Below are positions 1 to 39,682 of a DNA stretch of 40,058 nucleotides, piece by piece. The notes under the pieces are model-generated. The model was not told the origin of the DNA, searched no databases, and saw only the letters and a program-made list of their open reading frames with translations. The stretch is from a virus (taxonomy: Duplodnaviria; Heunggongvirae; Uroviricota; Caudoviricetes), in IMG/VR virus record IMGVR_UViG_3300028456_000007, one strand, 5' to 3'. The number at the start of each line of letters is the position of its first letter. Position 1 is the first letter of the stretch. The position numbers and the translations under genes were made by a program.

Positions 1-573
1 ATGTTTTGCGAAGAAAAAGTAGCTCAAATGGCTGCATACCTACTTCTTAAGAGAGGTGGGCGCATGGCATATCTGAAATTGATGAAGCTGCTCTATCTGT
101 CTAACCGCCAGTCGATTTTGAAGCATGGCAGGATGATCGGCGAAGATAGCCTTTACTCTATGAAATTTGGACCAGTCATGTCGAATACGCTGAACTTGAT
201 TCGCGGTAAGGCTGAAGGCATTGGTGACTACTGGTACAACTTGATAGAGACGAACGGGCATAATGTATCGTTGCGTTCAGATCCGAGGGAAATGGATGCA
301 GACGAGGTCTTTGATGAATTGAGTCGTGCAGATATCCGGATTTTAGATGAAATCTATTCTCGGTATGGGCATATGAACCGATTTGATCTCGCAAATATGA
401 CGCATTTAGAAAGCGTTTGTCCAGAGTGGCACGATCCTGGCAATTCTCGTAAGCCTATAGACCTGAAAGAAATGCTGATCAGTGAGGGTAAAAGCGAGGA
501 TGAGGCTAATCGCATAATTGGCAAAATGGAAGAATCTCAGAAACTTAAGGAATTTTCTTTGCAATTATCATGA
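1..573 (+). CDS. Panacea/DUF4065-domain protein (SocA/PanA-like putative antitoxin); possibly 5'-partial at window edge
   Basis: ORF begins at window position 1; segment AYLLLKRGG-RMAYLKLMKLLYLS resembles the conserved N-terminal core of DUF4065/Panacea proteins as recalled; stop overlaps next start (ATGA at 570-573). Confidence 0.5.
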   Translation: MFCEEKVAQMAAYLLLKRGGRMAYLKLMKLLYLSNRQSILKHGRMIGEDSLYSMKFGPVMSNTLNLIRGKAEGIGDYWYNLIETNGHNVSLRSDPREMDADEVFDELSRADIRILDEIYSRYGHMNRFDLANMTHLESVCPEWHDPGNSRKPIDLKEMLISEGKSEDEANRIIGKMEESQKLKEFSLQLS

Positions 574-1340: not shown

Positions 1341-2375
1341 ATGCCACTAAAAGCGTCACTTAACGGAAAAGAAATTCATTCTTTTGAATTTAACTCTCAG
1401 GAATGGGAATATCTTAAACAGACATATAAAAGCCAGTCTTTGTTTATGTCGTGCTGTGGTCAGCCTGGTATACCTAAAACAAGCAAACTTAATAACTATT
1501 ACTTTGCACATAAATCCAAAAGCGATTGCCTGTATGCGAAAGAAAGCGCAGAACATTTATATCTCAAATTCTTAATCGCAAAATTAGCCAGTGATGCTGG
1601 CTGGTCAGTTACTACCGAAAAACAAGGGGCGACCCCAGCAGGAGAACAATGGATTGCCGATGTGTTTTGTACCAGAAATAACGCGAAACTGGTTTTCGAA
1701 GTACAGTTATCACCGCAAAAAGACGATGAATTTAAAGAACGTCAAAAACGATATATCGCATCAGGAGTCCGTGCACTGTGGTTGCGAAAGTTACGTAAAG
1801 GAAGTAAAGAGCATGGTGGGAATATATACCATAGCTACGATTTACCTGTTTTTGGTGTGCGTCAGAATGAAAATGGGGACTTGTATCTACCACAGTTTGG
1901 GATTAGTGTCAGGGAGTTTATCGCGGGTGTTTTTGCCAGAAAGCTATTATGGTTCCCAAAGGTTGGGGATGTGCTGACTGCAAAAATAGAATCGCGAGTT
2001 ACAAAATGCTGGAGATGTAAGAAACGAACTGGAATTATCAGAGGTATTTCTGTTTACAGTAAGTCCGTATTCGTCAAGTTTTTATCTTTTCGTGATTCTG
2101 ATGTCAAAGAACTAATAGCCACTCACGTGGATAACAAAAAACTCTGGGCGGCTGGAATTGGTACTGTTAAGGACAGAGACAGTGATTGTTATTTATCTAA
2201 CTGTTGCATACATTGTTATTCGATTATAGGAGATTTCTTTTTATTAGAGGTTTTCGACTATCCGAATGATAAACAAAAGATAATGATAGAATTTACTTTT
2301 AATTATGCTAGCAATATGAAAATCTTATCCAGCGAGTGGGTATTTGATGGTAAAAAAGCTGAAATATTTTTCTGA
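1341..2375 (+). CDS. CoiA-like family protein (predicted PD-(D/E)xK-type nuclease with Cys clusters)
   Basis: 344-aa ORF; CC..YYFAH motif followed by ESAEH..K..E..QWIADV..FEVQLS resembles competence protein CoiA family; extra CWRC...NCCIHC cluster; GGGAGGG SD upstream; clearly AT-rich versus rest of window. Confidence 0.55.
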   Translation: MPLKASLNGKEIHSFEFNSQEWEYLKQTYKSQSLFMSCCGQPGIPKTSKLNNYYFAHKSKSDCLYAKESAEHLYLKFLIAKLASDAGWSVTTEKQGATPAGEQWIADVFCTRNNAKLVFEVQLSPQKDDEFKERQKRYIASGVRALWLRKLRKGSKEHGGNIYHSYDLPVFGVRQNENGDLYLPQFGISVREFIAGVFARKLLWFPKVGDVLTAKIESRVTKCWRCKKRTGIIRGISVYSKSVFVKFLSFRDSDVKELIATHVDNKKLWAAGIGTVKDRDSDCYLSNCCIHCYSIIGDFFLLEVFDYPNDKQKIMIEFTFNYASNMKILSSEWVFDGKKAEIFF

Positions 2376-5545: not shown

Positions 5546-6199
5546 TCAAAAATCCATTATTACTTGTTTGACAAGACCAACTATTCTGCAGTTCTCACCG
5601 CATTCAATAGTTTTATAGTTAGGATTTAGTGGGACGAGATACCTGTTCGGCCAGTCCTCAACAAATTTTTTGAGTGTCGCTTCTTGCCCACCATTGATAT
5701 GGGCAACAACGATTTTTCCGTTAATACACTCTGTATCAATAATATCTGGCTCTACGATAACGATAGAACCTTCTGGTATCGATGGTGAGCCGAGGGGATT
5801 GGTCATTGAATCACCACGGACCCGTAGTGCAAATGCCATTTCTGATACAAGGGCGGTAGTATAAACCCACTCTTCAGCATCTTCTTTCCTGACACCAGGC
5901 TCCGTCATTGTCCATGAACCCGCCTGAACCCACGAGATGAGGGGGACTTTTTTAACTGCGAATATTTCAGGTTTTAGATTTATCTTTGGTTCAGGCGAGC
6001 CTTTTCCGCTAACAAGCCACAGAGGATCGCATTTAAGTGCGTTGGCTAGGGCTTGAAGGTTGGCTCCATTTGGTTGGTAGTCGTCCTTTTCCCATCCAGT
6101 AACCGTGACACGGTTCACACCAGTCAAATCAGCCAGTGCTTGTTGTGTCAGGTTCAGTTCTTTTCGCCTTTGGCGAATACGATCACTCATGTTCATCAT
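5546..6199 (-). CDS. CI-like phage repressor (N-terminal HTH, C-terminal LexA/S24 peptidase-like autocleavage domain)
   Basis: HTH segment LTQQALADLTGVNRVTVTGWE; C-terminal VRGDSM ... KIVVAHINGGQEATLKKF typical of S24 family; start ambiguous among ATGs 6199/6196/6190 (ORF track 6223). Confidence 0.85.
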   Translation of the reverse strand: MMNMSDRIRQRRKELNLTQQALADLTGVNRVTVTGWEKDDYQPNGANLQALANALKCDPLWLVSGKGSPEPKINLKPEIFAVKKVPLISWVQAGSWTMTEPGVRKEDAEEWVYTTALVSEMAFALRVRGDSMTNPLGSPSIPEGSIVIVEPDIIDTECINGKIVVAHINGGQEATLKKFVEDWPNRYLVPLNPNYKTIECGENCRIVGLVKQVIMDF

Positions 6200-6263
6200 G
6201 TAGGCAATCCTACCACATGCCAATGTAGGATTCTTGACATTGACATGTTGGATATCCTACATT
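6198..6263 (+). promoter_or_regulatory. OR operator cluster with PR-like promoter
   Basis: three sites with palindromic core GT(A/T)GGATATCC(A/T)AC: 6200..6213, 6225..6238 (half-site), 6247..6260; TTGACA 6234..6239 - 18 bp - TACATT 6258..6263; cro ATG at 6295. Confidence 0.55.
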
Positions 6264-8246: not shown

Positions 8247-8467
8247 TCCGGAATATTTTCAAACGTTTTACCAATCAGACTTTCCGTTGTCCTCGTCCGG
8301 GTCAGTGGTACACCACGCCTGCAGGGCATGTTCTACGTGTTAGCCTGGTTGACCGTGAATGTCAGAAGGTGGTTTGTGAACCGCTGGGCCGTAATTACCG
8401 CGTCAGTATGCCGCTTATAGCCTTTCGCTCCAGAAAAAACATGAAGCATCTCGGAGGTGCAGCATGA
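8243..8467 (+). CDS. hypothetical protein
   Basis: 74-aa ORF with ATGA coupling to upstream and downstream genes. Confidence 0.4.
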   Translation: MIRNIFKRFTNQTFRCPRPGQWYTTPAGHVLRVSLVDRECQKVVCEPLGRNYRVSMPLIAFRSRKNMKHLGGAA

Positions 8468-9282
8468 GTATGGAGCTGATGGTTAAAGCGATGAAAATTC
8501 GAGTGGGTAATCCATTGCGAAAACTGGTTCTGATCAAGCTGGCTGATAATGCCAGCGATCAGGGTGAGTGCTGGCCCAGCTACCAGCATATTGCTGACCA
8601 GTGCGAGATTAGCAAACGTTCTGTGATGAATCATATTGCGGCCCTTTGTGATTCCGGGCTGGTAAAAAAAGTCACCCGGAAAGGTGAAAAAGGTAACTCA
8701 AGTAATATCTATCTCCTTCATCTTGATGGTGCAGGAGATTCACTAGGGGGTAGTGCAAATAATTCACTATCTGGTGCAGCAAATTCACCAGGTAGTGCAG
8801 GAGTTGCACCAGGGGGTGGTGCAGGAGATTCACCCAGAACCAGTCACTCTTTTGAACCAGTCAAAGAACCAGTCAATGAACCAATAGCTGTTGGTGCATC
8901 TGCTGATGAGTCCGTGCGAGTTCGTTCAAACCGACCGGAATACTCTCCGGAGTTTGAGCAGGCATGGCTGGCATACCCCAAACGTGCTGGTGGCAATTCA
9001 AAATCTGCAGCCTTCAAAGCCTGGAAAGCCCGTTTGAATGAGGGGGTAAAACCCGAAACCATGCTGGAAGGTGTGAAACGCTACGCGGGCTGGGTATCTG
9101 CGATGGGTAACAGCGGCACACAATTTGTGAAACAGGCTGTCACGTTCTTTGGTCCGGATCGTCATTTCGAAGAATCCTGGGAAGTTCCTGCGGTATCTGC
9201 AGCCAGACGCGAGGACCCGTACTTCAAAGCCAGTTACGACAACGTGGACTACAGCCAGATCCCGGCAGGATTCAGGGGGTGA
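8464..9282 (+). CDS. replication initiation protein (N-terminal winged-helix domain, O-like)
   Basis: N-terminal LRKLVLIKLADNASDQGECWPSYQHIADQCEISKRSVMNHIAAL resembles phage replication-protein HTH domains; Gly/Ser linker encoded by iteron-like repeats. Confidence 0.5.
   Translation: MSMELMVKAMKIRVGNPLRKLVLIKLADNASDQGECWPSYQHIADQCEISKRSVMNHIAALCDSGLVKKVTRKGEKGNSSNIYLLHLDGAGDSLGGSANNSLSGAANSPGSAGVAPGGGAGDSPRTSHSFEPVKEPVNEPIAVGASADESVRVRSNRPEYSPEFEQAWLAYPKRAGGNSKSAAFKAWKARLNEGVKPETMLEGVKRYAGWVSAMGNSGTQFVKQAVTFFGPDRHFEESWEVPAVSAARREDPYFKASYDNVDYSQIPAGFRG
8728..8875. repeat. iteron-like direct repeats inside replication gene (candidate ori)
   Basis: five 16-bp near-palindromic units (GGTGCAGGAGATTCAC type) at 8728, 8752, 8773, 8794, 8818 with 21-24 bp spacing, then three perfect GAACCAGTCA copies at 8837, 8854, 8866. 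Confidence 0.45.
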
Positions 9283-9284
9283 TC

Positions 9285-9773
9285 ATGAGTCTTTTGAATG
9301 AAGTTCAGAAATTCATTGAAGCCCATCCGGGGTGTACTTCCGGAGACATTGCGGATGCTTTTGCAGGTTACTCACGGCAGCGCGTTCTGCAGTCAGCAAG
9401 CAAGTTACGTCAGAGTGGGCGTGTGGCTCACCGTTGTGAAGGGGATACACGCAGACATTTCCCGCGCCTGACTGAGAGAGCGCAGGAGCCGGAACCACAA
9501 CCAGTTCGTGAAACCAGACCTGTGCGCAATTTCTATGTCGGCACTAACGATCCCCGGGTGATTTTGTGCCTGACCCGCCAGGCGGAAGAACTGGAGTCCA
9601 GGGGCTTATACCGTCGTGCTGCAACGGTGTGGATGGCGGCATTCCGTGAAAGCCACTCCCAGCCAGAACGAAACAATTTTCTGGCGCGTCGTGAGCAGTG
9701 TTTACGGAAAAGCAGCAAGCGCGCTGTATCGGGTGATGAGTGGTATCTGTCAGGGAATTACGTGGGGGCTTAA
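9285..9773 (+). CDS. PerC/Pch-like transcriptional regulator family protein with N-terminal extension
   Basis: C-terminal AEELESRGLYRRAATVWMAAF ... ARREQCLRK matches PerC-family pattern as recalled; ATG 9285 after GTG 9279. Confidence 0.45.
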   Translation: MSLLNEVQKFIEAHPGCTSGDIADAFAGYSRQRVLQSASKLRQSGRVAHRCEGDTRRHFPRLTERAQEPEPQPVRETRPVRNFYVGTNDPRVILCLTRQAEELESRGLYRRAATVWMAAFRESHSQPERNNFLARREQCLRKSSKRAVSGDEWYLSGNYVGA

Positions 9774-10426
9774 TGAGTAATAAATATTGCCAGGCGCTGG
9801 TGGAGCTGCGGAATAAACCAGCCCATGAACTGAAGGAAGTGGGCGATCAGTGGCGCACGCCGGATAACATTTTCTGGGGAATTAACACCCTGTTTGGCCC
9901 GTTTGTTCTGGATCTGTTCACTGATGGTGATAACGCCAAATGTGCCGCTTATTACACTGCGGAAGACAACGCGCTGGCGCATGACTGGTCTGAACGTCTT
10001 GCGGAGCTTAAAGGTGCTGCCTTTGGTAATCCCCCGTACAGCCGCGCCAGTCAGCATGAAGGGCAATACATCACCGGCATGCGTTACATCATGAAGCATG
10101 CCAGTGCCATGCGTGATAAGGGCGGACGCTATGTTTTCCTGATCAAAGCTGCCACCAGCGAAGTGTGGTGGCCGGAAGATGCAGATCATATTGCTTTTAT
10201 TCGCGGGCGTATTGGTTTTGAACTGCCTGCCTGGTTTATCCCGAAGGACGAGAAGCAGGTGCCGACAGGCGCTTTCTTCGCTGGTGCTATTGCTGTTTTC
10301 GACAAGACCTGGAAGGGACCGGCAATCAGCTACATCGGGCGCGATGAACTTGAGGCATGTGGTGAGGCGTTTCTGGCGCAGGTTCGCCAGCAGGCAGAAA
10401 AACTGGTCAGGGAGATGGCGGCATGA
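9773..10426 (+). CDS. phage DNA N6-adenine methyltransferase (Dam-like)
   Basis: NPPY motif (FGNPPYS) and WRTPDNIFWGINTLFGPFVLD N-terminal pattern; ATG 9773 overlaps upstream stop. Confidence 0.8.
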   Translation: MSNKYCQALVELRNKPAHELKEVGDQWRTPDNIFWGINTLFGPFVLDLFTDGDNAKCAAYYTAEDNALAHDWSERLAELKGAAFGNPPYSRASQHEGQYITGMRYIMKHASAMRDKGGRYVFLIKAATSEVWWPEDADHIAFIRGRIGFELPAWFIPKDEKQVPTGAFFAGAIAVFDKTWKGPAISYIGRDELEACGEAFLAQVRQQAEKLVREMAA

Positions 10427-10749
10427 CGACGTTAACTCAATGCCAGCAGCAGGTGCTGGATATGCTGATTTCTTATCAGAAAGAACGTGGCTTCCCGCCA
10501 ACCAATCAGGAGGTGGCAACCATGCTGGGATACCGTTCGGTGAATGCAGCGGTGGAGCATCTTCGCGCACTGGAGAAAAAAGGCGTCATCACGATAAAGC
10601 GTGGCGTGGCCCGGGGGATAACGCTTCATACCGCGGTGAAGGACGACGACAGCGAGGCGGTCGGGATTATCCGCGCACTGCTTGCCGGTGAGGAAAACGC
10701 CAGGCTGCGTGCAACCCACTGGTTACATGAGAGGGACCTGAAAGTATGA
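10423..10749 (+). CDS. LexA N-terminal DNA-binding-domain homolog lacking S24 peptidase domain
   Basis: LTQCQQQVLDMLISYQKERGFPPTNQEVATMLGYRSVNAAVEHLRALEKKGVI aligns closely with LexA residues ~1-70 (winged HTH); only 108 aa, no Ser/Lys peptidase region. Confidence 0.6.
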   Translation: MTTLTQCQQQVLDMLISYQKERGFPPTNQEVATMLGYRSVNAAVEHLRALEKKGVITIKRGVARGITLHTAVKDDDSEAVGIIRALLAGEENARLRATHWLHERDLKV

Positions 10750-12974: not shown

Positions 12975-13727
12975 ATGAACCTTGAAGCCTTACCGAAATA
13001 TTACTCCCCGAAATCTCCAAAACTGAGCGATGACGCACCGGCGACAGGCTCTGGTGGTTTAACAATTACGGATGTGATGGCTGCGCAGGGGATGGTGCAG
13101 TCGAAAGCACCGCTTGGGTTTGCCTTATTCCTGGCAAAAGTTGGTGTTCAGGATCCTCAGTTTGCGATTGAAGGTCTGCTCAATTACGCGATGGCACTGG
13201 ATAACCCGACATTGAATAAATTGAGTGAAGAAACCCGGCTACAGATCATTCCTTACCTTGTGAATTTTGCCTTTGCTGATTATTCCAGGTCTGCGGCAAG
13301 TAAGGCTCGCTGTGAGCATTGTGCTGGTACTGGATTTCATAATGTATTGCGCGAAGTGGTGAAACACTCCAGAAGCGGGGAATCTGTTATCAAGGAAGAG
13401 TGGGTGAAGGAACTATGTCAGCATTGTCATGGTAAGGGAGAAGTCAGCACAGCGTGTAGAGGGTGTAAGGGGAAAGGTATTGTACTGGATGAAAAAAGAA
13501 CCCGGCTTCATGGTGCGCCTGTTTATAAGATTTGTGGGCGTTGCAATGGAAACCGGTTTAGCCGTTTACCAACCACACTGGCGCGGCATCATGTCCAGAA
13601 GCTGGTACCGGACCTGACGGATTATCAGTGGTACAAAGGATATGCAGATGTCATTGATAAACTGGTTACAAAGTGCTGGCAGGAAGAAGCATATGCAGAG
13701 ACACAATTGAGAAAAGTGACAAGATAA
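12975..13727 (+). CDS. Q-like late gene antiterminator (zinc-finger type)
   Basis: CEHCAGTG...CQHCHGKG...CRGCKGKG...CGRCNG zinc-binding repeats; position just upstream of a short terminated leader and lysis genes. Confidence 0.65.
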   Translation: MNLEALPKYYSPKSPKLSDDAPATGSGGLTITDVMAAQGMVQSKAPLGFALFLAKVGVQDPQFAIEGLLNYAMALDNPTLNKLSEETRLQIIPYLVNFAFADYSRSAASKARCEHCAGTGFHNVLREVVKHSRSGESVIKEEWVKELCQHCHGKGEVSTACRGCKGKGIVLDEKRTRLHGAPVYKICGRCNGNRFSRLPTTLARHHVQKLVPDLTDYQWYKGYADVIDKLVTKCWQEEAYAETQLRKVTR

Positions 13728-13795: not shown

Positions 13796-13837
13796 CGATG
13801 GGCTTTGTATGTCTGCCGTTAACGAAATCATAACAAA

Positions 13838-13859
13838 CCTCGCTTCGGCGGGGTTTTTG
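13838..13859 (+). terminator. tR'-like rho-independent terminator downstream of Q
   Basis: stem CCUCGC/GCGGGG with UUCG tetraloop followed by TTTTT-G-CTTTT. Confidence 0.55.
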
Positions 13860-16118: not shown

Positions 16119-16439
16119 ATGAAAGATGGTATCTATTTTGTTGTTTTCAGAAGCAATCAACGTGATTTTGGTAATGGTACCGTAGTTGTCAAAAACAATG
16201 CAGTAAACGGCGGAGATTTTGGTTTTACGTATCAGGGAAAAATTGACGGTAGCCAACTTATTCTGCGCGTATCGCAGCATGATTTAAATGTCACCTCGGT
16301 TTTCCCTGGGGTAAAGAACTTTGAATTGAGTCTTTCTTTGCAGGAACGAGGACGTGATTACCTGTTAAATGGATCTGTGGTCGGAATGCCTCAGATGCAA
16401 ATTTCAATTAGTGCAAAATACATTGGTGATCTGATTTAG
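16119..16439 (+). CDS. hypothetical protein (moron between lysis and packaging genes)
   Basis: 106-aa AT-rich ORF with its own downstream terminator. Confidence 0.45.
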   Translation: MKDGIYFVVFRSNQRDFGNGTVVVKNNAVNGGDFGFTYQGKIDGSQLILRVSQHDLNVTSVFPGVKNFELSLSLQERGRDYLLNGSVVGMPQMQISISAKYIGDLI

Positions 16440-35017: not shown

Positions 35018-35610
35018 TGAAACCTGTATTTGATGAAAATGACCTGGCAACAGAGGCGGGCAACATCCGTTGTTTCTACTTCGATCCTGTAACGTTCGAA
35101 TATACTGGCTGGTCTGACGAATATATTAATGTTGGTGTAAGCATGCCTGGCCATTCAACAGATATTGACCCAGGTGATGAAGTGGACGGAAAAATTGCAG
35201 TGTTCACAAACGGTCAGTGGGAGCTGTACGAGGACCATCGAGGGGGCGCGGTTTATTCAACAACCGATGCTTCAGCCGTTACGGTGGACTATATTGGCCC
35301 GGTAAAGGATGGTTACACCATCCTTGCACCTTCAGGCCCATACGATAAATGGGATGGAGAGAAATGGGTGACCGATACTGAGGCACAGCATAGCGCCGCA
35401 GTAGACGCGGCAGAAGTACAGCGTCAGTCACTGATTAATACTGCAATGGCTTCCATTAGTCTGATTCAACTTAAATTGCAGGCCGGGCGGAAGCTGATGC
35501 AGGCAGAGACCACCCGACTTAACACTGTGCTGGATTACATTGACGCGGTGACGGCAACAGATACCAGCACAGCGCCGGATGTCATCTGGCCTGAACTGCC
35601 GGAGGCGTAG
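35017..35610 (+). CDS. tail fibre assembly protein
   Basis: Tfa-like sequence directly after fibre gene. Confidence 0.8.
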   Translation: MKPVFDENDLATEAGNIRCFYFDPVTFEYTGWSDEYINVGVSMPGHSTDIDPGDEVDGKIAVFTNGQWELYEDHRGGAVYSTTDASAVTVDYIGPVKDGYTILAPSGPYDKWDGEKWVTDTEAQHSAAVDAAEVQRQSLINTAMASISLIQLKLQAGRKLMQAETTRLNTVLDYIDAVTATDTSTAPDVIWPELPEA

Positions 35611-36019
35611 GCCATTCAATATCTGGCACACTGGAGGTATCAACCAGCTCCAGTGCGTCCAGGTAATCCAGCCACAAATTATATTGCGCCAGTTCCTCGT
35701 CTTTCAGACGACCAATAGCGGCTTTACCGGGCCATTGTTTACTGTTCATGTATTCGTTGGCCTGATTAAGCAATAATTGCCTTTCTGATTCTGCCTGTTG
35801 AATAAGTTCTTCATGTGATGGTGAAGGTATTAGTGCCCATGTGGGTAATCCATTTTCTCCTGCAACACGAATTTTGCCATCTGGGGGCGTATTTATTGCA
35901 AATTCATTATAAACATCGTCACTGACAGCCAGAGCATCATCTGGCCATGAATTTGCATTAATGTAATCATCCTTAAGTGCAGGATTCACAAAAATGTTTA
36001 AAGATGGACTATAAAACAT
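35582..36019 (-). CDS. alternative tail fibre assembly protein (paired with silent fibre variant)
   Basis: Tfa-like sequence on opposite strand, convergent with the other assembly gene. Confidence 0.75.
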   Translation of the reverse strand: MFYSPSLNIFVNPALKDDYINANSWPDDALAVSDDVYNEFAINTPPDGKIRVAGENGLPTWALIPSPSHEELIQQAESERQLLLNQANEYMNSKQWPGKAAIGRLKDEELAQYNLWLDYLDALELVDTSSVPDIEWPTPPAVQAR

Positions 36020-36441: not shown

Positions 36442-37005
36442 ATGATTTACGGGTATGTTCGTGTATCAACAAATCATCAGGATACAGAGTTGCAACGTCT
36501 TGCACTTGAGTCAGCTGGCTGTGAGCGAATTTATGAAGAATATGCCAGTGGCAGAACAGCTAATCGCCCTGTGTTAAAGGAATTAATTACGGTGATGAAA
36601 AGTGGAGATGAGTTGATTGTCTGGAAGTTAGATCGGATAGGGAGAAATGTGCTGCATGCGCTATTGATGTTTCAAAATCTGCACGAAAAAGGTGTTAATT
36701 TTCGGAGTATTACAGATGGCGTAGACCTGAAAACAGCAAGTGGTCGCTATAATTTCCGTAATATTCTTTCTGCTGCGCAGTATGAATCTGATTTGAATAG
36801 CGAGCGAACTTTAGCTGGTTTGGCTATTGCCAGATCCAAAGGCCGGATTGGTGGGCGTAGACCGAAGTTTAGCGACGAGCAGTGGCAACAGATGGGAGCG
36901 CTCATAGCGGCAGGGAAATCACGGCGTTATGTTGCACGTATCTATAACGTTGGGCTATCAACCCTATATAAACGATTTCCTGTTACTGGCATTCAAACGA
37001 AATAA
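36442..37005 (+). CDS. DNA invertase, serine recombinase (Pin/Gin/Hin/Cin family)
   Basis: YGYVRVSTNHQ catalytic Ser motif, resolvase-type N-terminal domain, C-terminal HTH; AGGAGAA SD. Confidence 0.9.
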   Translation: MIYGYVRVSTNHQDTELQRLALESAGCERIYEEYASGRTANRPVLKELITVMKSGDELIVWKLDRIGRNVLHALLMFQNLHEKGVNFRSITDGVDLKTASGRYNFRNILSAAQYESDLNSERTLAGLAIARSKGRIGGRRPKFSDEQWQQMGALIAAGKSRRYVARIYNVGLSTLYKRFPVTGIQTK

Positions 37006-37458: not shown

Positions 37459-38556
37459 TCAAGAGGTCTTATTTCTGCTCCTTTGGAGCTCTTCAAAACG
37501 ATTATGTAAAGATTTCGGATACAGTTCGGTATATACCTGCCATAGCACGTTTAATGAACGATGCCCTGTAACCTGGGCGACTTCCTCAATACTAAAACCA
37601 GCCTCAAATAAGCGACTTGCCCCTTCTCTACGCAAATCATGGTATCGCAGATCTTTAATACCTAATTTGCTTCTTACCCTCTGGAATCCCGCAGTAACAG
37701 AAGTGCTGTTATATGGAAAAATGAATTCTGATTTTTTGGGTTGTCGTTGGACGATATCCCAGGCTTCCCCAAGCAAGGCTACTTTCATATGGTTGCCTTC
37801 CTTTTTACGTGGATCTTTCCTGTCTCTTACGAGTATGGATTTTTGTTCCTGATCGAGATCCTCCCATCGTAATCGGCATACTTCACCGATTCGCATACAT
37901 GACCACACAGAAAATTTGAGGATATCAACGAACGGAATTTTTGAGCATTTATGTGTAGATCGTTGTTGAAGACCTTCAATGAGCATGTCCAGTTCATCAG
38001 ATGCCGGTCTACGATTACGACGATTTGATTTACCAATTAAACCAAGTTTAAGTAGATATGGACGAGCGGCTTTTGCTGGGTTTGATGTGTAATTAATTCC
38101 ATATACAGGTTTGGCAGCATCCAGAACACTGCCAAGATAACTAACATCGTGGCTAACTGTAGCTGGACCTGCACCAGCGTTGTTTCTTAGCCTGCAATGT
38201 TCAATTACGTCATTTTCTGTCAGTTCAGATAGTTTGATCGCGGAGATGTCACTATCCATAAGCAGTTCCAGCACATATCTTTTAGTACGGCCTGCTTTAC
38301 CTCCGGCATTTGGGTCATTTAAATATTTGTGTAGTAAGTCACGGACTGTAAGTCCGTCAACTGCATTTGATGATGGAATGCCATATAGATCTAATTCCAT
38401 CACTTTCTGTGTGCCCCATGTTTTGGCATGAGCATGTTTAGGGAATGTTTTGCTTTCCCTGTAAGTGATAACACCTTTTTCTTTGATAATCACATTACAG
38501 CGATAGCGTGGTGTGCCATCGGATTTTAGTCGTTTCTCTATGTTATAGTACGCCAT
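37459..38556 (-). CDS. int: tyrosine site-specific integrase (dusA-associated type)
   Basis: C-terminal catalytic pattern HDLRREGASRL ... TGHRSLNVLWQVY; adjacent to 5' end of dusA. Confidence 0.9.
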   Translation of the reverse strand: MAYYNIEKRLKSDGTPRYRCNVIIKEKGVITYRESKTFPKHAHAKTWGTQKVMELDLYGIPSSNAVDGLTVRDLLHKYLNDPNAGGKAGRTKRYVLELLMDSDISAIKLSELTENDVIEHCRLRNNAGAGPATVSHDVSYLGSVLDAAKPVYGINYTSNPAKAARPYLLKLGLIGKSNRRNRRPASDELDMLIEGLQQRSTHKCSKIPFVDILKFSVWSCMRIGEVCRLRWEDLDQEQKSILVRDRKDPRKKEGNHMKVALLGEAWDIVQRQPKKSEFIFPYNSTSVTAGFQRVRSKLGIKDLRYHDLRREGASRLFEAGFSIEEVAQVTGHRSLNVLWQVYTELYPKSLHNRFEELQRSRNKTS

Positions 38557-38644: not shown

Positions 38645-39682
38645 ATGCACGATAATCATGAAACACAAAAAATTAATCAAACCAGCGTGATGCCTGAAAA
38701 AACTGGTGTTTACTGGAATTCTCGGTTTAGCATTGCTCCTATGCTCGACTGGACGGACAGACATTGCCGCTATTTCTTGCGTCTGCTTTCCCGCAATACG
38801 TTGCTGTATACCGAAATGGTGACCACAGGGGCGATTATTCACGGTAAAGGTGATTACCTGGCGTACAGTGAAGAAGAACATCCGGTAGCGTTGCAACTCG
38901 GCGGTAGCGATCCGGCGGCGCTGGCACAGTGTGCGAAGCTGGCAGAAGCGCGTGGATATGATGAGATCAACCTGAATGTCGGCTGCCCGTCTGACCGGGT
39001 GCAGAACGGCATGTTTGGTGCGTGTCTGATGGGTAATGCGCAGCTGGTTGCCGACTGCGTGAAAGCGATGCGCGATGTGGTGTCGATTCCAGTGACGGTG
39101 AAAACGCGTATTGGCATCGATGACCAGGACAGCTATGAATTTCTCTGCGATTTCATCAACACCGTTTCCGGCAAAGGCGAGTGTGAGATGTTTATCATCC
39201 ACGCACGTAAAGCCTGGCTTTCGGGGTTAAGCCCGAAAGAAAACCGTGAAATCCCGCCGCTCGATTATCCGCGTGTGTATCAACTGAAGCGTGACTTTCC
39301 GCATCTGACAATGTCGATTAACGGTGGTATCAAGTCGCTGGAAGAGGCCAAAGCACACCTGCAACATATGGATGGCGTGATGGTCGGGCGCGAGGCGTAT
39401 CAGAATCCGGGTATTCTGGCGGCGGTAGACCGGGAGATCTTTGGTTCCTCGGATACCGATGCCGATCCAGTGGCGGTAGTGCGCGCCATGTATCCGTACA
39501 TTGAGCGTGAACTCAGCCAGGGGACGTATCTCGGCCATATTACCCGGCATATGTTGGGCTTGTTCCAGGGTATTCCTGGCGCGCGGCAGTGGCGGCGTTA
39601 TTTAAGTGAAAATGCCCATAAAGCGGGTGCAGACATTAATGTGCTGGAACACGCGCTCAAACTGGTGGCGGATAAGCGTTAA
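38645..39682 (+). CDS. dusA: tRNA-dihydrouridine synthase A
   Basis: 345-aa ORF recognised as DusA from memory of the E. coli protein; TIM-barrel Dus pattern (NLNVGCP ... K-x-R); conserved host neighbour pspG follows. Confidence 0.9.

Follow-up and report, generated by a model that had tools for sequence, protein, structure and literature searches.

We analysed a viral DNA sequence of 40,058 nucleotides (IMG/VR record IMGVR_UViG_3300028456_000007, Caudoviricetes), hereafter called the window, with a focus on one gene in its left part. This gene is of the yfdN type and encodes a protein in which a C-terminal half of the PerC family follows a longer N-terminal part. An earlier note on the same DNA, written from the sequence itself, had described it as a PerC/Pch-like regulator with an N-terminal extension. 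The gene and the segments of its product are listed below, with residue numbers counted from ATG 9285 (the form of 162 amino acids, aa).

9279..9773, + strand: yfdN-type gene, 164 aa from GTG 9279 or 162 aa from ATG 9285, with the stop codon TAA at 9771-9773.
9285..9464, + strand: N-terminal winged helix-turn-helix domain as modelled by AlphaFold2, three helices and a beta-hairpin wing (aa 1-60).
9465..9551, + strand: Pro/Glu-rich variable linker of ~29 aa, predicted to be disordered (aa 61-89).
9552..9713, + strand: PerC-family three-helix module (aa 90-143).
9714..9770, + strand: C-terminal tail with the conserved residues W-Y-L-S-G-N-Y-V-G (aa 144-162).

The open reading frame at 9285-9773 is intact, as the earlier note had it, with 162 codons from its ATG to its TAA. 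The alternative start GTG 9279, which is the one used by the RefSeq/K-12 convention, overlaps the TGA stop of the upstream gene (9280-9282) by 4 nt (GTGA), and the same 4-nt overlap is present between yfdO and yfdN in the coordinates of Escherichia coli K-12. ATG 9285 is the start that the earlier note had adopted. A Shine-Dalgarno-like G-rich run, AGGGGG, is found shortly 5' of both candidates. Both starts are plausible, and the choice between them leaves the other conclusions untouched.

Comparison with known sequences identified the gene clearly. The protein shows 96% identity over 164 aa with YfdN of K-12 (b2357), which belongs to the cryptic prophage CPS-53/KpLE1 and is annotated there as 'uncharacterized protein YfdN'. 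PHROG 1324, named 'transcriptional activator', matches the protein over its full length (residues 1-161, E=5e-78); PHROGs also contains one family that covers only the N-terminal half (23071) and another that covers only the C-terminal half (2608). Several RefSeq genomes of E. coli contain DNA 100% identical to the gene, and among 5426 complete E. coli genomes a match was present in 2668 (49%), the carriers including K-12 MG1655, enterotoxigenic E. coli (ETEC) H10407 and strains of extraintestinal pathogenic E. coli (ExPEC). RefSeq calls the product a 'PerC family transcriptional regulator' and gives the symbol yfdN to DNA matches of 99.6-99.8%. SfV orf40 and mEp460 gp44 are the same gene, with 98-99% DNA identity, and homologues are also present in SfIV and in Stx2c- and Stx2a-converting phages. 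The open reading frame is almost certainly yfdN, carried by an SfV-like/lambdoid prophage that has integrated beside dusA. It is therefore a gene that is already known and rightly annotated, and a routine part of a very common group of prophages in E. coli, Shigella and Salmonella.

The assignment of the C-terminal half to the PerC family was confirmed by several methods. The Pfam family PerC (PF06069) matches aa 98-151 (nt 9576-9737) at 39 bits, above its gathering cutoff of 22.6 (E=1e-9), the match spanning profile positions 5-58 of 90. BLASTP against PerC of the enteropathogenic E. coli (EPEC) plasmid pMAR2 gave 32% identity over 56 aa (E=2e-7), and hhalign, used with a 37-sequence family alignment against PerC, gave a probability of 97.4% (E=1.4e-11). 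PF06069 was also matched by all 37 diverse relatives scanned. The conserved motif within the YfdN-type family is A..LE..GL.RRAATVW..AF....ER.....RR..CL, and the core that this family shares with PerC can be written A..LE.(K/R)G.(Y/F)RRAA..W......ER.....R..C. When AlphaFold2 was run on the 37-sequence alignment of diverse relatives, the module was modelled as helices 90-105, 109-122 and 126-143, with a predicted local distance difference test score (pLDDT) of ~97. The segment of aa 90-145 has an isoelectric point (pI) of 10.7. No likeness to a DNA-binding fold or to Hha/H-NS came out of a fold search with this domain alone.

The tail that follows the module is modelled with low confidence; its residues L155, G157 and G161 are conserved over the diverse two-domain relatives. 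The WYLSGNYVG tail is also present in two single-domain PerC-like proteins (P0190 and P0209) and is absent from PerC, whose C-terminal extension differs. With 162-164 aa, including a winged helix and a linker, the protein departs from the size of ~90-105 aa of single-domain PerC proteins. This mismatch is an architectural variant and does not exclude the protein from the Pfam PerC family.

The N-terminal part that the earlier note had called an extra domain is modelled as a winged helix, and it is conserved in the two-domain relatives. AlphaFold2 places helices at 3-13, 19-25 and 31-44 and strands at 47-52 and 55-60 (pLDDT 91-96). Foldseek searches against the PDB matched the winged helices of ArsR/SmtB, BlaI/MecI, MarR, SlyA, DsrD and SSV1 F-93, with root-mean-square deviations of 1.6-2.5 A over ~60 residues, a probability of 1.0 and E-values of 0.005-0.1, which are weak because the domain is small. 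A structure search of BFVD gave generic winged helices alone, and solved structures gave no match in a sequence search. The winged-helix fold is predicted with high confidence. DNA binding by this domain is presumed from the fold and from its basic character (pI 9.8 for aa 1-62).

In the linker, pLDDT falls to ~54-56 with no secondary structure, and the family alignment shows variation in both its length and its sequence. The predicted template modelling score of the whole model is 0.46 although the pLDDT of each domain is high; therefore, the protein appears to consist of two independently folding domains without a fixed mutual orientation. A scan of 1.84 billion representative proteins gathered 104 relatives, of which ~25 are full-length two-domain proteins with 25-47% identity and the common N-terminal motif MSL...(F/Y)I..NPG...I. 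Given that two-domain relatives reach down to ~25% identity, this architecture is an old and conserved one. Judged by these alignments, the ~92 extra N-terminal residues are a genuine conserved domain plus linker, and not the product of a mis-called start. BlaI, MecI and CopY repressors, of which BlaI/MecI are among the best structural matches of the N-terminal domain, offer a comparable plan, with a minimal N-terminal winged helix and a small helical C-terminal dimerisation domain. This likeness is only an analogy, since their C-terminal domains are not homologous to that of YfdN, and YfdN adds a long disordered linker.

We then considered the setting of the gene. The window is closest to the dusA-associated prophage of ETEC H10407, with 98-99% identity over 90-93% of its length; it represents a prophage integrated at dusA, and apparently an intact one. 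The features that define the prophage and the operon around yfdN are the following.

5546-6223, - strand: cI-like repressor gene (HTH_3 and Peptidase_S24).
6234..6263, + strand: pR-like sigma-70 promoter, TTGACA-18-TACATT (consensus scan, 10/12 matches).
8464..9282, + strand: replication-initiator-like gene (Pfam HTH_36, E=2.8e-11; DnaD_N below threshold).
9773..10426, + strand: phage N6-adenine DNA methyltransferase gene (Pfam Dam PF05869, E=9.7e-46).
12975..13727, + strand: antiterminator Q gene (Pfam Antiterm, E=1.1e-53), at the distal end of the early-right operon.
13835-13856, after Q: terminator-like hairpin (terminator scan).
37459-38556, - strand: tyrosine integrase gene, abutting dusA.
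38645-39682: dusA, adjoined by the integrase gene at the right end of the window.

The earlier note had spoken of PerC homologues carried on prophages, and a prophage location is right for this gene, which lies in the early operon of an SfV-like prophage. The pR-like promoter diverges from the cI-like repressor gene, and it is likely to be the source of the transcript that includes yfdN. The genes that follow it are, in order, cro-like, cII-like, Rha/Ash, a small open reading frame, the replication initiator and yfdN; after yfdN come Dam, a gene for a LexA-like DNA-binding domain, RusA, KilA-N, DUF968 and Q. The counterpart of the initiator gene is annotated as 'replication protein' in SfV and mEp460. 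On the downstream side, the ATG of the methyltransferase gene and the stop of yfdN have one base in common (TAATG). A promoter scan of the + strand from 6263 to yfdN gave no promoter-like site, and the terminator-like hairpins upstream of yfdN are weak and lie inside coding sequence. Because the gene is in the early operon and abuts or overlaps the starts and stops of its neighbours, it is presumably expressed only after inactivation of the repressor, and not constitutively in the lysogen. Thus yfdN does not seem to belong, as the pch genes do, to the lysogenic-conversion genes that are expressed independently. The listing of yfdN beside the prophage genes yfdR and c3192 and phage tail genes, in a table of nitric-oxide differential expression in CFT073 (PMC5320621), fits this operon context. 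The order of genes is the same in K-12, where yfdN (in CPS-53/KpLE1) is preceded by the replication-gene remnant yfdO and followed by the methyltransferase gene yfdM; however, the neighbours in K-12 are truncated remnants, whereas those in the window are complete.

These data bear directly on the role that the earlier note had suggested, namely that the prophage-borne protein activates ler/LEE1 of the enterocyte effacement locus (LEE), or another master regulator of a virulence island, as PerC and PchA/B/C do. This suggestion found no support, and we regard it as very unlikely to hold. The gene is carried by nearly half of the complete E. coli genomes, including K-12 MG1655, ETEC H10407 and ExPEC strains, which we take to lack the LEE, and it lies in a repressor-controlled early operon and itself has a host-like GC content of 54.6%, unlike an AT-rich gene with its own promoter. 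The presence of yfdN is no evidence of an attaching-and-effacing host. It is true that the PerC-family domain is genuine, with a core motif in common with PerC, that the gene lies on a prophage like the pch genes (PMC6265319), and that Uhlich et al. removed yfdN from a K-12 ler::lacZ reporter strain as a precaution (PMC5931665). However, activation of LEE1 is exceptional in the family: it has been reported for PerC and PchA/B/C only, PchD and PchE having a minimal effect (PMC5931665), and among the PerC-like proteins of phage-inducible islands LEE1 is either unaffected or repressed (PMC11773190). Overall, the observation of the earlier note was confirmed, and its interpretation was supported in part, being right on the family and the extension.

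Comparison with the founding members is consistent with this view. PerC (pEAF/pMAR2) and PchA/B/C resemble YfdN in having a homologous three-helix core and in being encoded on mobile elements. Unlike YfdN, PerC is a single-domain protein of 89 aa without winged helix and linker, to which the identity of YfdN is a mere 32%, and its AT-rich gene (34.8% GC) belongs to the plasmid cluster perABC, whereas yfdN belongs to a phage operon. A word-indexed protein search with PerC matched PerC itself only. The Pch proteins were compared by their published description; the genes of PchA/B/C are 315 bp long and encode single-domain proteins of ~104 aa (PMC5931665). PerC and PchA/B/C activate LEE1 by lifting H-NS silencing (PMC4764244), and nothing like that is known for YfdN.

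PchE, PchD and the island proteins EcCIMP1_025, EcCIEDL933 and EcCICFT073 are closer in setting, as they are PerC-family proteins encoded on phage-related elements, after replication genes, like yfdN. They show little or no activation of LEE1. PchE acts as a repressor of csgD/curli and also has an effect on flagella (PMC6265319, PMC7369912), EcCIMP1_025 represses LEE1, and the island proteins are described without a second domain, unlike YfdN (PMC11773190). Using published primer arms, we located pchE, the one gene of this group that we inspected, in E. coli 2013C-3342 (locus L176, 4627-5320). There it is a single-domain gene of 273 nt with an internal stop. It directly follows the gene for a single-stranded-DNA-binding protein and is itself followed by genes for capsid, protease and portal proteins; a DUF927 primase-like protein is encoded on the same island. 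PchE was considered as a possible characterised two-domain relative and was ruled out, being the product of a short single-domain gene after a single-stranded-DNA-binding protein gene in a capsid-encoding island.

Taken as a whole, the data are best explained if YfdN is an early-operon protein combining a winged helix with a PerC module and acting as a DNA-tethered regulator in lytic development, an explanation that we consider somewhat more probable than not. The gene would be transcribed in the early rightward operon once the prophage repressor has been inactivated, and the winged helix would tether the protein to DNA. The PerC module would then oligomerise and remodel or displace nucleoprotein complexes of the H-NS type, or partner regulators, so that YfdN would tune the transcription of phage genes, and incidentally of host genes, during lytic development. 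The mechanism in itself, that of a DNA-tethered PerC-type regulator serving as a general phage early gene and not as an LEE-specific activator, is proposed more tentatively, with a chance slightly below even. It is drawn from the precedents of Pch anti-silencing and of the three-helix ANR oligomers: Pch relieves the silencing of LEE1 by H-NS/StpA/Hha and is found at many sites on the chromosome (PMC4764244), and the three-helix ANR proteins form oligomers and bind to H-NS as well as to regulators of the AraC type (PMC4983702; PMC5570504). We also count the basic pI of both domains for this mechanism.

Several points weigh against the DNA-tethered regulator. Our literature search yielded no experiment on YfdN or on any two-domain member of the family; the gene appears there incidentally, as an overexpression clone scored in a glycogen screen, inside a 2.5-kb UTI89 fragment scoring weakly for filamentation, and in the CFT073 expression table already mentioned. 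The action of the PerC module is uncertain even in the founding members, because H-NS did not co-precipitate with PchA according to an unpublished mention by Fukui et al. When the C-terminal domain was modelled alone, the fold search gave just non-specific TPR/MIT-like three-helix matches (E>0.4). At the sequence level, the winged-helix matches of the N-terminal domain are below threshold (BilQ, 17 bits against a cutoff of 125; PHROG 1687 MarR, E=8e-5), and MarR_2, Penicillinase_R and HTH_24 gave weak matches in 2-4 of the 37 relatives (Penicillinase_R in 4). Winged helices can also bind proteins, and DNA binding by that of YfdN is a prediction only. Finally, the near-constant place of the gene after a replication initiator would equally suit a role in replication.

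The neighbourhood of yfdN was compared across related viruses. An initiator gene stands directly upstream of yfdN in all 80 close viral loci, and it does so with a 4-nt overlap in all 41 diverse viral loci, in which the YfdN-like protein goes down to ~30% identity. In near-identical loci the upstream initiators occur as three alleles, of 313, 272 and 330 aa, which have the same C-terminal ~25 aa. In the window, the initiator gene contains five ~16-nt iterons, RGTGCAnnAnnTnCAC, starting at 8728, 8752, 8773, 8794 and 8818 (21-24 nt spacing), and after them three copies of GAACCAGTCA at 8836-8875. As a repeat pattern, the stretch 8728-8875 resembles an origin, and its layout within the initiator gene is similar to that of lambda, whose origin lies within gene O.

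The main rival explanation therefore takes YfdN as an accessory replication factor, that is, a second component of the replication module, which would be either a stand-in for a loader of the lambda P/DnaC type or an origin-activating factor working with the upstream initiator. The overlap with an iteron-carrying initiator gene fits this explanation, as does the early region, in which no helicase, loader or primase was found (by Pfam in the right operon, and by RefSeq names in the left operon of related prophages). In addition, phiP27, Stx1_14744 and 75/02 Stx have an initiator ~73% identical in the C-terminal domain, and the slot of YfdN is taken in them by a DnaC-like loader, alone or together with a DnaB-like helicase. 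However, YfdN has no similarity to known replication proteins in Pfam, NCBIfam and PHROGs, including P, DnaC and IstB-type ATPases, and the only family that it matches is a family of transcription regulators. The association with an initiator also has exceptions, as the gene of one homologue (P0147, 40% identity) lies directly before Q, far from any initiator, and that of another (P0202, 29%) lies after RecT. Moreover, vB_EcoS-689R5 has a related initiator with the same C-terminal IPxGFRG tail and nothing replication-related downstream, so that the initiator seems able to work alone; a literature search on 'initiator-solo' replication modules found nothing. The IPxGFRG tail itself does not co-vary with YfdN, because initiators bear it upstream of yfdN, upstream of a DnaC-like loader gene and where nothing follows. 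Altogether, we consider a replication role of this kind unlikely.

The tail was also noted in its own right. Initiators with divergent N-terminal and middle regions end in the common IPxGFRG tail (9205-9282 in the window, and loci L177-L180, L004, L008 and L013), whereas initiators of the phiP27 type, which are accompanied by their own DnaC and DnaB, end differently. We considered this tail as a YfdN-specific docking site and rejected the idea, since it also precedes a DnaC-like gene or nothing. It may instead recruit a host factor.

A second rival to the DNA-tethered regulator arises from the three-helix module. In this case YfdN would be an anti-activator like the ANR proteins (for example Aar), mainly a repressor, whose module binds and inactivates a partner such as an AraC-type activator, H-NS or a phage regulator. 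ANR proteins are small basic three-helix modules that form oligomers, one match in the representative library (P0199) is named as ANR family, and an island PerC-like protein represses LEE1, for which its authors proposed an ANR-like action (PMC11773190). The similarity of YfdN to NCBIfam ANR_neg_reg (NF033650) is weak, however; residues 96-142 score 22.5 bits, under the cutoff of 32, whereas the PerC score is over its own cutoff. ANR proteins differ from YfdN in staying below 10 kDa, in lacking a DNA-binding domain and, typically, in having an AraC-type activator as partner (PMC4983702). The genes examined around yfdN included none of the AraC family, and a pure anti-activator would not need an added winged helix. 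This explanation is thus quite improbable.

To return to the DNA-tethered regulator, the way in which a PerC module finds its DNA targets is unclear, and the layout of YfdN suggests one means of bringing such a module to DNA. A bolder extension, which we think doubtful, is that YfdN-type proteins form a distinct class of phage early proteins, in which a DNA-tethered PerC module at or near the origin and early operon either clears H-NS-type silencing from phage DNA, incoming or induced, or assists a lone initiator. PerC and Pch would then be later adaptations stripped of the additional domain. In itself the gene is of little consequence; residual value lies in its layout and in its presence, as a gene still listed as uncharacterised, in about half of the complete E. 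coli genomes, K-12 included. If YfdN is indeed a phage anti-silencing or origin-associated factor, it would provide an evolutionary context for the virulence regulators PerC and Pch, as well as a tractable K-12 model for the PerC family.

We also made several observations on the genes around yfdN. In the close loci, yfdN is followed in most cases by a methyltransferase gene, and in 19 of 77 directly by the gene for the LexA-like DNA-binding domain. Distant relatives retain the series of initiator, yfdN-like, methyltransferase and LexA-like genes, but the methyltransferases come from three unrelated families: PF05869 in the window, MT-A70 in L008 (1912-2580) and D12-class in L013 (5444-6268). 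The slot is thus a facultative one, subject to non-orthologous replacement. A link between the methyltransferase and the function of YfdN was considered and rejected, because the slot is empty in those 19 of 77 loci and hence facultative. The LexA-like gene of the window (10423-10749, + strand) encodes a 108-aa protein that consists of the LexA DNA-binding domain alone, without the S24 peptidase domain, and its synteny with yfdN-like genes extends to the distant relatives L008 and L013.

Outside the early operon, an open reading frame of 106 aa (16119-16439, + strand) lies between the lysis and the HNH/terminase genes. It matches Pfam GrlR over the full length, with 26.7 bits against a threshold of 26.8, practically on the borderline, and its H10407 homologue has the RefSeq name 'GrlR family regulatory protein'. 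GrlR is an LEE-encoded negative regulator of type III secretion. This open reading frame looks like an accessory cargo gene, and one that points to cross-talk of the LEE type more than yfdN does. At the left end of the window, the product of 1-573 (+ strand) has a Panacea (SocA-like antitoxin) domain, and next to this gene is an overlapping 139-aa open reading frame without a family match (together 1-989); the two are possibly a toxin-antitoxin pair. The gene at 1341-2375 (+ strand) encodes a protein with a CoiA-like nuclease domain. These left-end genes (1-989 and 1341-2375) look like accessory or defence cargo. Near the right end, a serine invertase gene of the Hin/Gin type (36442-37005) has as its neighbour a tail-fibre assembly gene of opposite orientation (35582-36019), which suggests an invertible host-range segment.

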